Assembly: GCA_002392765.1 (NCBI GenBank)
Contig: DGHT01000014.1
Coordinates: 38,951 to 102,950, forward strand
Source of the DNA: Verrucomicrobia bacterium UBA3841
Lineage (GTDB): Bacteria; Verrucomicrobiota; Kiritimatiellia; RFP12; UBA1067
Length of the DNA: 64,000 nt
Reading direction: 5' to 3'
Part shown: positions 54,604 to 56,642 of the stretch, one piece after another
Layout: each line of letters starts with the position of its first letter
How positions within the stretch are numbered: the first letter of the stretch is position 1
Program-made: the position numbers and the translations under genes
Notes under the pieces: model-generated
Database searches by the model: none
Told to the model about the DNA's origin: nothing
The model's input: only the letters and a program-made list of their open reading frames with translations

Positions 54604-54894
54604 TCAGGACTGGAATGACGGCATTGGCGGTGGCGGAAGATTGAACGCCTTGCCGATGAGATTGCCGAGCGAATCGTCGCGCAGCAATGCCTCGTCCGGA
54701 ATCCCGGCCGCCTCTATCTCCTCCGCCGATACCGACGCGCGCGTTATGGTCATATTGCCAAAATCGCGCGAAACGGCGGATTTTCCCGAAGATACCGATT
54801 TTTCCGATACGGAGCCTTGAACCCCGCCGGTACCGTTTGCGAACTTCGAAACGTCGAAATTTCCATTGTTGCCGAAATTGATTTCCATTTTCAT
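54604..54894 (-). CDS. Small (94-96 aa) low-complexity protein of unknown function, downstream of the ECF sigma gene
   Basis: MKMEINFGNNGNFDVSKFANGTGGVQGSVSEKSVSSGKSAVSRDFGNMTITRASVSAEEIEAAGIPDEALLRDDSLGNLIGKAFNLPPPPMPSFQS. AAGGAGA lies directly before the first ATG, so the third-codon ATG (54888) has the better spacing. No TM segment or signal peptide, and no family recognised. Confidence 0.5.
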   Translation of the reverse strand: MKMEINFGNNGNFDVSKFANGTGGVQGSVSEKSVSSGKSAVSRDFGNMTITRASVSAEEIEAAGIPDEALLRDDSLGNLIGKAFNLPPPPMPSFQS

Positions 54895-54932
54895 TCTCCT
54901 TGTTGATCTCTGCCGTTATTACACGCATCCGT

Positions 54933-55445
54933 CTACAAGGTTACACCCATTTCAGATAAAATTTCACGCAGTTTTTCTTTGGCGCGGAAAATCCGCACCT
55001 TCACAAGGCCTTCCCCGACACCCGTCTCGGCGGCGATTTCGCGGACGGAGCGTTCGCCGACCTGGAAAAGCGTGTAAGTCTCGCGCAGCGCGGGAGGAAG
55101 GCGGGAAAAGGCGGCGACAAGCTTCTTGCGCAGGTTTCGCGTCTCCCGGACCGACTCCGAGGGCAGCTCGGCGGGACTGACGCCTCCGGCGTCCTCGTCC
55201 GTTATCTCTTCTTTGAAAGCCAAACGCCTGTCGTCACGCGCAATATTTTTGCGCAGATTGCGTGCCGTCGTGAACGCGAGACCGCTGACGGCGGCGTCGT
55301 TGTCCAGAAGATCGTCGCGCATTTTCCATATCCGCAAAAAGGTCTCCTGCACCAGATCGCACGCCTGCGCGTATGGAGAGCCCGTTGCGACAAGCCAGTT
55401 CGTGAGCCTTGGCGCTATGACCTTGTAATGTTCTTCGATATTCAT
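54933..55445 (-). CDS. ECF-type RNA polymerase sigma-70 family factor
   Basis: Start at ATG 55445 (ATGA overlap with the sctU stop), 170 aa. Region 2 DLVQETFLRIWK and region 4 ..TYTLFQVGERSVREIAAETGVGEGLVKVRIFRAKEKLR are present. Confidence 0.85.
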   Translation of the reverse strand: MNIEEHYKVIAPRLTNWLVATGSPYAQACDLVQETFLRIWKMRDDLLDNDAAVSGLAFTTARNLRKNIARDDRRLAFKEEITDEDAGGVSPAELPSESVRETRNLRKKLVAAFSRLPPALRETYTLFQVGERSVREIAAETGVGEGLVKVRIFRAKEKLREILSEMGVTL

Positions 55446-56542
55446 AGTTCTCCCAAAGTGATCGAATCCAGTTCTTCTTCCTCCTTGCGGGCGTCCTGTA
55501 TCCTTTTCGCCCACTTCAGCACTTCCGCCACGGGCTCCAGAAAGCCCTCGGGCACAAATTCCTCGACGCGCCCCTGCGCGTACAGCGCGCGGGCGAGCGG
55601 CACGTCCTCCATGATCGGAATCCCCTCGGCCAAAGCCGTCTCGCGGATGATTTTCGCCACTCTGTCGACACCCATCACGCAAATGCGCGGAATCGGGGCC
55701 TCTTCGGCGTCGTACCTTATGCCGACCGAAATATGTGTAGGGTTCGTCACGACGACATTCGCCCGCTTCGTCGCTTTCGCAGGTTCCGGTCCATTGAGGA
55801 CCTCGTCGCGGAACTGGCGCTGAGCCTGCTTGATTTCCGCGGAGCCTTCCATCTCCTTGTATTCGCGCTTCACCTCGTCCTTGGTCATCATCATCTGCTT
55901 GGTGAAGTTCTTGCCCTGGAACAGCCTGTCCACTATGGCGATTATGATATAGCCGAACGCGGTATACACGGCCAGCCTCTTGAGCATGAGTTTCAGACAG
56001 GGGAATATGTCGTCGATCGTCCCGTAGCACATCGTGAGCAGCTCGGGCACGCTCGCCCATATTATTTTGTAGATGAGGTAGCTGAGAAAAGAAACCTTGA
56101 CGACGTTCTTGAAGAACTCGAAAAGATTCTTCATGGAAAATATCTTCTTGGCGCCTTCCACCGGACTGAGTTTCTCCAGTTTCGGGATTATCGGCTCGAA
56201 CGTGAAAAGAAATCCTATCTGCGCGGCGTTGGCGACAATTCCGATGACGGCCGCGACAAGCACGACGATGAAAGAATGCTTGCAAATGACGAATGCCGTC
56301 ACTCCGATCGCTGGATAAGTCGCATCGAACGGATCGCCGCCCAGACGGTCGCCGATGAAGTCCATCAACATGGAGGAATCGTCTACGAGCGCCACTCCCG
56401 TCCAGCCGAGAAGCGCAAAAAGCACCACCAATATCGCCGTGGAAACGATATCCTTCGAGTTGCACACTTGCCCCTTCTGCCGCGCGTCGCGCAACTTTTT
56501 CGGGGTCGGCATCTCCGTCTTCTCGCCAGAGCTTTCACCCAT
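55442..56542 (-). CDS. sctU: Type III secretion export-apparatus switch protein, SctU (YscU/EscU/FlhB family), injectisome-like
   Basis: 366 aa. GEKTEMPTPKKLRDARQKGQVCNSKDIVS, PVEGAKKIFSMKNLFEFFKNVVKV, KDEVKREYKEMEGSAEIKQAQRQF, the autocleavage site VVVTNPTHISVGI and GIPIMEDVPLARALY are present. By eye it is closer to YscU than to flagellar FlhB. No other T3SS gene is in the window. Confidence 0.85.
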   Translation of the reverse strand: MGESSGEKTEMPTPKKLRDARQKGQVCNSKDIVSTAILVVLFALLGWTGVALVDDSSMLMDFIGDRLGGDPFDATYPAIGVTAFVICKHSFIVVLVAAVIGIVANAAQIGFLFTFEPIIPKLEKLSPVEGAKKIFSMKNLFEFFKNVVKVSFLSYLIYKIIWASVPELLTMCYGTIDDIFPCLKLMLKRLAVYTAFGYIIIAIVDRLFQGKNFTKQMMMTKDEVKREYKEMEGSAEIKQAQRQFRDEVLNGPEPAKATKRANVVVTNPTHISVGIRYDAEEAPIPRICVMGVDRVAKIIRETALAEGIPIMEDVPLARALYAQGRVEEFVPEGFLEPVAEVLKWAKRIQDARKEEEELDSITLGEL

Positions 56543-56577: not shown

Positions 56578-56586
56578 ATTATAGCA
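56578..56586 (-). promoter_or_regulatory. Candidate extended -10 (TGCTATAAT) for sctU
   Basis: Minus strand has TGCTATAAT about 36 nt upstream of ATG 56542. The -35 position falls inside the 8-mer repeat array. Confidence 0.4.
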
Positions 56587-56594
56587 TAATATCC

Positions 56595-56642
56595 GGAATT
56601 ATGGAATTACGGAATTGCGGAAATGCGGGATTATGGAATTCT
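56595..56642. repeat. Octanucleotide tandem array (GGRATTRY-like), 6 units = 48 bp, immediately upstream of the sctU -10
   Basis: ggaattat ggaattac ggaattgc ggaaatgc gggattat ggaattct. Same family and unit count as 18750..18797. Confidence 0.85.

Follow-up and report, generated by a model that had tools for sequence, protein, structure and literature searches.

To our knowledge, experimental evidence that an injectisome couples its own secretion to the activity of a sigma factor comes only from Bordetella. In that genus BtrS, a sigma factor of the extracytoplasmic function (ECF) type, is encoded beside a secreted anti-sigma factor, BtrA (BspR), whose secretion requires the CesT-family chaperone BtcB (BP2265) and whose sigma-binding helix has been modelled as residues 136–164 (PMC10732220); the partner switchers of the same system are BtrU (a SpoIIE phosphatase), BtrW (a kinase) and BtrV (a STAS protein) (PMC7498569). 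Here, we describe a three-gene locus in a window of 64,000 nucleotides (nt; the whole stretch of DNA that was analysed) from Verrucomicrobia bacterium UBA3841 (GenBank assembly GCA_002392765.1, contig DGHT01000014.1, positions 38,951 to 102,950 of the forward strand), the minus strand of which carries sctU (encoding the export-apparatus switch protein of an injectisome), a gene for an ECF sigma factor and a small open reading frame (ORF), hereafter X. In ruminant-gut Kiritimatiellae, the trio normally makes up the 3′ end of the operon for the export apparatus of their type III secretion system (T3SS). Its best reading, which we hold tentatively and at slightly below an even chance, is a secretion-coupled sigma checkpoint with X as an exported anti-sigma factor.

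Judged by analogy, the Bordetella btr node appears to be the closest known system. Both systems have a Ysc-family injectisome, an ECF sigma factor encoded beside a small T3SS-linked protein, a CesT-family chaperone tied to that protein (in the Kiritimatiellae by gene position), and STAS, PP2C and anti-sigma-type kinase functions at the T3SS locus; every btr component has a counterpart here, and the predicted logic, in which export of an antagonist would couple secretion to transcription, may be the same. The differences are considerable: X has 94 amino acids (aa) and BtrA is longer (its sigma-binding helix alone lies at 136–164; the two proteins were compared by length only), and the sigma-X pair usually comes last in the sctP–sctU operon, often translationally coupled to sctU, whereas Bordetella has a separate btr locus. 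In addition, phosphatase and kinase are here fused in one membrane protein adjoining a periplasmic SBP_bac_3 protein, the T3SS operons have housekeeping promoters with no sigma-dependent promoter found, and the host is an uncultured gut commensal of the Planctomycetes-Verrucomicrobia-Chlamydiae (PVC) superphylum rather than a proteobacterial pathogen.

The flagellar pair of FlgM and sigma-28 resembles the proposed arrangement in having a small, largely disordered inhibitor of ∼95 aa with its binding element in the C-terminal half, and in type III export freeing the sigma factor, as is proposed for X. However, X shows no sequence relation to FlgM, an ECF sigma factor (group 4) takes the place of the group 3 sigma-28, export would run through an injectisome, and X has as its conserved element a short helix with a polyproline motif after it. 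In the ExsA-ExsD-ExsC-ExsE cascade of Pseudomonas aeruginosa, the small disordered regulator ExsE (81 aa) is bound by the class I chaperone-like ExsC, and transcription is switched on when ExsE is secreted by a Ysc-family T3SS. Such a regulator, a chaperone and Ysc-family export would be common to both systems, but the output there is an AraC-type activator reached via two intermediary partners, not an ECF sigma factor, and the family libraries showed no resemblance to X. An ECF sigma factor dedicated to a T3SS is also found in the Hrp systems of plant pathogens, where HrpL is stated to coordinate most T3SS genes and hrpL transcription to depend on sigma-54 (PMC5263251); in contrast, the sigma factor described here lies behind a housekeeping promoter and has a small partner that is constant, and nothing resembling an hrp box was found. 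Our literature search turned up no description of a T3SS in Kiritimatiellae or of how it is regulated.

Family models place SctU on the injectisome side, at 372 bits against TIGR01404 (cut-off 358) and 302.6 bits against the flagellar FlhB model TIGR00328, below its cut-off of 349. The PF01312 match covers the full length (profile positions 1–334 of 335; 342 bits) and is the single one genome-wide, which makes this sctU the only copy; among solved structures the C-terminal domain is nearest to YscU (122 bits; EscU, 87 bits), and orthologues in relatives share 57–86% identity. An FlhB-type gene was found neither in the source genome nor in the 61 relatives surveyed below. The second protein has the domains Sigma70_r2 (PF04542) and r4_2 (PF08281) only, matches TIGR02937 at 66 bits (cut-off 42.9) and has the ECF factors SigE and SigL as its nearest solved structures; by domain content and size it is classed as an ECF (group 4) sigma-70 factor. 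X is taken to be 94 aa long because the second of two possible ATG codons (54888) is properly spaced from the GGAG and matches the start of its homologues, all of which begin M-(E/N/D)-I-N; the upstream ATG at 54894 would give 96 aa (ORF 54604–54894), and the gap from the sigma gene is 44 or 38 nt, respectively. X has no transmembrane segment (maximum KD19 0.46), an isoelectric point of 4.5 and neither Cys nor His, and half of residues 1–50 (50%) are G, S, N or T. A preliminary description made from the letters of the stretch had reported this trio with its NPTH site, a SctU closer to YscU than to FlhB, an ATGA overlap of sctU and sigma, and a Gly/Ser/Asn-rich protein of 94–96 aa without transmembrane segment 38 nt downstream; family models and coordinates bear out each of these observations, and the sigma ATG does share bases with the sctU TGA (Table 1).

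Table 1. Coordinates of the sctU-sigma-X locus (positions in the window) and of T3SS-related genes on other contigs of the source genome
Feature	Location	Strand	Remarks
sctU, injectisome export-apparatus switch protein	55442..56542	-	366 aa; TIGR01404, PF01312
NPTH autocleavage motif of SctU, residues 267-270	55733..55744	-	read from sequence
T3SS-associated ECF sigma factor	54933..55445	-	170 aa; start overlaps sctU stop as ATGA
X, candidate exported anti-sigma factor, acidic, predicted disordered	54604..54888	-	94 aa; GGAG ribosome-binding site, 'MEINF' start
Conserved N-terminus of X, M-(E/N/D)-I-(N/S)-(L/I/F)-N	54871..54888	-	candidate type III secretion signal
Conserved C-terminal motif of X, L-R-D-D-x-L-G-x-L-x3-A-F-N-L-P-P-P-P-M-P-x-F, residues 69-92	54613..54684	-	invariant alignment columns
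Extended -10 promoter element TGCTATAAT	56578..56586	-	about 36 nt upstream of sctU ATG
Tandem repeats of the 8-bp unit CGGAATTA, about 5.9 copies	56594..56640	.	TRF; covers -35 region of sctU promoter
sctC, 201-aa gene, sctW (HrpJ+TyeA), SycN-like, YscX-like, sctV, sctD, sctF, YscG/HrpB1-like tetratricopeptide repeat protein, sctI, sctJ, sctK, sctL, sctN, sctO, start of sctP	contig C66		
End of sctP, sctQ, sctR, sctS	contig C7		
sctT	contig C38		
SycD-like chaperone and SseC-family translocator (SctE)	contig C43		
CesT-family chaperone homologue	contig C15		
Partner-switch modules	C43:42322-45400 (L040 2323-5401) and C9:13935-16946		two paralogous copies

To establish the distribution of the trio, 61 genomes of the same genus and order were surveyed, 21 of which have an injectisome-type SctU. 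Orthologues of the sigma factor (≥51% identity) occur in 20 of these 21, and the SctU-negative relatives have none, except for a fragment at a contig end in a metagenome-assembled genome (MAG) of 59% completeness. On this distribution the sigma factor is very probably dedicated to the T3SS. One relative (G016) has a second sigma paralogue, 41% identical, ∼1.8 kb upstream of sctU (L037 3449-3931; G016 C57:7448-7930). Among the SctU-positive relatives, sigma directly follows sctU in 13 loci, often with overlapping stop and start codons, and X follows sigma in 10 of those 13. When all GTDB species were scanned with a degenerate pattern for the X motif (derived from a 6-row alignment), 23 loci were recovered, all from gut Kiritimatiellae (goat, sheep and yak rumen MAGs). 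Their predominant order is sctP-sctQ-sctR-sctS-sctT-sctU-sigma-X; sctR-S-T-U-sigma-X is contiguous in 13 of the 23, and partial order is kept in more. The synteny of sctU, ECF sigma and small ORF, which had been suggested as something to look for in related genomes, is thus present there.

Departures from this order leave the pair of sigma and X intact. The order is sctR-sctS-sigma-X-(166 aa)-sctT-sctU in G009 and sctU-X-sigma in loci of the G052 type, with the X stop overlapping the sigma start; in G044 sigma-X directly precedes the translocon operon, and in G011 it forms a stand-alone pair, with a STAS gene following sctU. Whatever the position of the pair, sigma and X are, when linked, adjacent and in the same orientation. 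X was found in 18 of the 61 relatives, all of them sigma-positive, and in no sigma-negative genome. Co-occurrence and adjacency of this kind are what one would expect if a dedicated regulator were paired with its cognate partner.

A word-indexed search for homologues of X returned three proteins only, and an exhaustive profile search was needed to recover the family (246 cluster representatives, 146 of them at E ≤ 1e-10), whose members are all about 80–100 aa long, none fused to another domain. The ratio of nonsynonymous to synonymous substitution rates (dN/dS) between X orthologues is mostly 0.15–0.4, in variable and conserved parts alike. X is a genuine gene under purifying selection, so the doubt voiced in the preliminary description, that the small ORF might not be conserved, does not apply. 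Profile and structure searches, also proposed there, returned nothing: 25 family members had no Pfam match at E ≤ 10 (FlgM, PF04316, included) except for three scattered chance matches, NCBIfam gave no match for X, and the X profile had no match in the PDB at E ≤ 10. The reported lack of the FlgM C-terminal motif is in line with this outcome, and as far as these databases extend, the X family is undescribed. Two candidate relationships were rejected. A zinc-binding (ZAS) or class I anti-sigma domain does not fit, as the window's X has no Cys or His, hence no HxxxCxxC, and one confident 10-residue helix rather than a four-helix domain of about 80–90 aa; and a likeness to sigma region 4.1 (an LxxLxxAFxxLPP pattern), suggested by a MAFFT misalignment, is due to chance (hhalign probability 0.3%, E 0.21).

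With the exception of its C-terminal helix, X is predicted to be intrinsically disordered. In an AlphaFold2 model built on a 25-sequence alignment, residues 1–60 have low confidence and residues 73–82 form a helix (predicted local distance difference test [pLDDT] 84–87); models and alignments agree that the C-terminal motif, this helix and then an invariant L-P-P-P-P-M-P-x-F, is the only confidently folded part. The N-terminus is, unexpectedly for a disordered region, also conserved: the strict motif is present in 98 of the 146 family representatives. Only 5 of 1,989 predicted gene starts in the source genome fit the motif of X, 3 of these 5 being translocon-operon proteins, SctE included, and the N-terminus of X thus appears to resemble those of predicted translocators. 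The usual signature of a type III substrate combines an N-terminus like that of translocators, a disordered body and a neighbouring class I chaperone gene, and chaperone-bound substrates typically have a long N-terminal half that is disordered.

An adjacent chaperone gene is what many relatives have. In 8 of the 23 X loci, a gene for a CesT-family chaperone of ∼157 aa comes immediately after X (PF05932, 46–57 bits against a cut-off of 22, on the three members scanned), and in an X-sigma arrangement (L082) the same chaperone follows sigma. In the sister species G014 (L004 3440-3560), a short ORF (MKTLDDYKTFLAGVHRQTGLEAL...) directly after X resembles an N-terminal remnant of CesT and marks the rearrangement breakpoint. 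A further T3SS-linked element is a module of three proteins, two paralogous copies of which are found in the source genome: a STAS protein, a lipoprotein of the SBP_bac_3 family and a membrane protein of ∼680 aa. The last of these is a single-chain partner-switch phosphatase-kinase, in which a sensor region is joined to a SpoIIE PP2C phosphatase and a HATPase_c_2 kinase of the RsbW type. In relatives the module lies directly after sctU (G009, G011), after sigma (G015, G025, G027) or after X (L070), and it is enriched in T3SS genomes, not exclusive to them.

The source genome (G000; 3.05 Mb in 72 contigs, 86% complete, the window being part of its contig C51) carries the remainder of the injectisome elsewhere. 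The trio is flanked by genes of polyamine and serine metabolism, an Orn/Lys/Arg decarboxylase gene (SpeA type, PF01276) and a class-V aminotransferase gene, named speA and serC in the preliminary description (the first name agrees with PF01276; the second is that description's own, the gene being seen here as a class-V aminotransferase), and no other sct gene adjoins the trio or lies in the 64-kb window. The “orphan” status that had been given to sctU holds in this local sense only, as this is the sole sctU of a complete, scattered T3SS: FHIPEP (sctV), FliP (sctR) and Bac_export_2 (sctU) have one match each genome-wide, and the single matches to sctV, sctR/S and sctT sit on other contigs. The remaining sct genes, which the preliminary description had recommended locating, form a complete set on contigs C66, C7, C38 and C43 with intact frames. 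SctV reaches 786 bits with Yersinia YscV, compared with 467 for SsaV and 398 for FlhA; Pfam YscO, T3SS_SCTL, Type_III_SycN, HrpJ and TyeA matches reach their cut-offs, YscK does so with a best stretch that covers part of the profile, and YscX is weak (E 0.0013, below cut-off). By SctV scores and these accessory matches, the system is assigned to the Ysc family of injectisomes. The Chlamydia-type origin expected for a PVC organism was considered and rejected, since the SctV C-terminal domain scores 385 bits against YscV and 288 against a chain that we take to be chlamydial CdsV (PDB 6wa6). The T3SS is almost certainly complete and functional.

In the source genome, and partly in a sister species of 86% identity, but only in these two, a rearrangement has detached the operon tail and given it its own promoter. 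The ancestral sctP-U-sigma-X-cesT operon is found in at least four pieces in the source genome (C7:2402-4170, C38:86626-87534 and C15:958-1452 besides the trio), with sctT and the CesT chaperone gene each alone among unrelated genes; the gene after sctS, read from its translation by eye, is presumably YhcG/PDDEXK-like.

The promoter of the detached tail contains an extended −10 element of the form TGnTAnAAT. This form occurs within 200 nt upstream of 146 of 1,989 gene starts in the source genome (7.3%, against 1.65% expected), and because of this genome-wide enrichment it is regarded as the housekeeping promoter type. This element is also found ahead of the sctC operon and of one CesT-chaperone locus, ahead of sctU in the sister species, in front of stand-alone sigma genes or X-sigma pairs in five genomes and in front of the translocon operon in at least nine. 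In seven genomes, the region upstream of sigma or of sctU-sigma showed only TGnTATAAT elements of the housekeeping type. Sigma and SctU appear to be made together, from an extended −10 promoter of the housekeeping type, and their translation is often coupled.

In the proposed checkpoint, X would bind the sigma factor through its C-terminal helix-polyproline element and hold it inactive. Once the injectisome is assembled or triggered, a CesT-type chaperone would grip the N-terminal region of X and deliver the protein to the export gate; with X secreted, the sigma factor would be free to switch on its regulon, and the STAS and PP2C-kinase partner-switch modules might add a second control layer. 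The parts of this scheme differ in strength. Antagonism of sigma by X is somewhat more probable than not; for export of X by the T3SS, the chances appear evenly divided. A checkpoint of this kind had been put forward for the trio in the preliminary description, and what stands of it is supported by the restriction of sigma and X to injectisome genomes, their constant adjacency, the CesT gene after X, the translocator-like N-terminus, the disordered body and the partner-switch modules; its framing as an orphan system did not stand, and the ECF-type promoter that it had proposed to look for upstream of other sct genes was not found in the regions inspected. Taken together, the interpretation may be called well supported by context. 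That X is the founder of a new family of injectisome-exported anti-sigma factors (disordered, ∼90 aa), unrelated to FlgM and BtrA (set apart from BtrA by length only), gripping a T3SS-dedicated ECF sigma factor by a helix-polyproline element of 25 residues and released by CesT-assisted secretion, is a bolder proposition and a somewhat doubtful one.

Several results weigh against the checkpoint. The upstream regions of sctU, of the sctC operon, of sigma in 5 other genomes, of the translocon operon in 19 genomes and of candidate effector/chaperone loci were inspected, and neither an ECF-type promoter nor a regulon was found in them, only housekeeping TGnTATAAT elements. Autoregulation from an ECF-type promoter is common, though not universal, among ECF sigma factors; with housekeeping elements only, this one is not visibly autoregulated, and the structural genes of the T3SS may not depend on it. 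Equally, a sigma factor behind a housekeeping promoter and without an ECF-type one would be made constitutively with the apparatus, which fits post-translational control by a partner protein. Some sigma-positive genomes lack X beside sigma: X lies elsewhere in G013 and G016, only a weak X-like match was found (again elsewhere in the genome) in G015 and G025, and X was not detected in G023 and G027. The CesT gene is unlinked in the source genome itself (contig C15). X has no recognisable anti-sigma domain or Zn motif, its conserved element being only about 25 residues long. Finally, when a natural read-through fusion of sigma, a 13-aa linker and X (L077, with four other fusions) was modelled in AlphaFold2, the predicted template modelling score was 0.29, the X helix dropped to a pLDDT of about 52–56 and no confident docking was seen; with only five paired rows in the alignment, this outcome counts neither for nor against binding.

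An unlikely alternative is that X is a cognate anti-sigma factor, or another modulator of sigma, that acts in the cytoplasm only and is freed, in the manner of NepR, through the STAS/PP2C-kinase partner switch or through proteolysis. Small soluble anti-sigma factors, NepR among them, are established, and the invariance of sigma-X adjacency in every context speaks for this alternative, as do the position of X directly upstream of the STAS-SBP-PP2C/kinase genes in L070 and the presence of such modules beside sigma or sctU in other genomes. It leaves without explanation the CesT-family secretion chaperone gene directly after X in many species, the strongly conserved N-terminus that resembles predicted translocators and the long disordered N-terminal half, as in chaperone-bound substrates; moreover, the partner switchers of Bordetella control secretion, not BtrS (PMC7498569).

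Those same export-like features would equally suit a plain substrate of the T3SS, whether an early or middle one or an effector whose invariant LPPPP-type motif mimics a eukaryotic EVH1-, profilin- or SH3-binding ligand; such a protein would play no part in controlling sigma and would lie beside the sigma gene only as a member of the same operon tail. A known EVH1 ligand motif is (F/L)PPPP, which the polyproline motif may recall, and in one locus (L078), which has no sigma gene close by, X lies between a CesT chaperone gene (a paralogue different from the one that follows X elsewhere) and an effector-like gene of 610 aa. A mere substrate would have little reason, however, to stay with sigma outside the sct operon (G011, G044) or in inverted order with overlapping codons (G052 type), which is a sigma/anti-sigma pattern, or to be absent from every sigma-negative genome. 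We consider the substrate-only explanation improbable, and the roles of substrate and anti-sigma factor do not exclude each other. A third alternative, in which sctU is the stranded remnant of a lost T3SS with two unrelated passenger genes downstream, as its metabolic-gene surroundings in the window might suggest, is effectively refuted by the complete, intact-frame sct set elsewhere in the genome, by an intact sctU with its NPTH site and no second copy, and by conservation of the trio across species under purifying selection.

If the secretion-coupled checkpoint is correct, a second and phylogenetically remote system with a much smaller partner would show the generality of secretion-coupled sigma control, which would then be a recurrent invention of type III systems, hard-wired in this case into the sctU end of the export-gate operon. 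The conserved putative binding element of X, only about 25 residues long, would make it a minimal model. Kiritimatiellae are abundant, uncultured ruminant-gut bacteria that are usually regarded as polysaccharide degraders; a complete Ysc-type injectisome with predicted translocators and candidate effector/chaperone pairs implies direct interaction with cells of eukaryotes, whether protists of the rumen or the epithelium of the host. The X family, whose 246 representatives are without annotation, and the T3SS-specific sigma factor could mark such systems in metagenomes.

Some further features of the T3SS loci are worth noting. Tandem arrays with units of 7–8 bp are found in many T3SS intergenic spacers (on contig C66, L028: 4285-4340, 4992-5033, 7760-7799, 9921-9944 and 14449-14494), with units that differ from one spacer to another. 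The sctD coding region contains the 7-bp unit GGGGAAC ten times in tandem (L028, C66, 7414-7483), at residues about 93–116, in the stretch that separates the FHA-like domain from the membrane segment. Adding or losing a single unit would put the reading frame out, and a slipped-strand phase-variation switch on the injectisome would have this geometry. A candidate effector locus in the source genome (C47:44627-49400) comprises a 49-aa ORF whose start, MSIQFNPN, has the N-terminal pattern seen in X and in the translocators, two CesT-like chaperone genes, and a gene for a 754-aa protein that is related to the product of the 610-aa gene adjoining X in L078. A family of proteins of 117–144 aa, without Pfam match, is also linked to the T3SS, being present in 19 of the 61 relatives, nearly the same set as SctU: it is encoded by the first gene of the translocon operon in the source genome (L038 4117-4494; C43:18116-18493), and elsewhere after sctU (G009), after X (G044) or after sctT (G015, G025 and G027).

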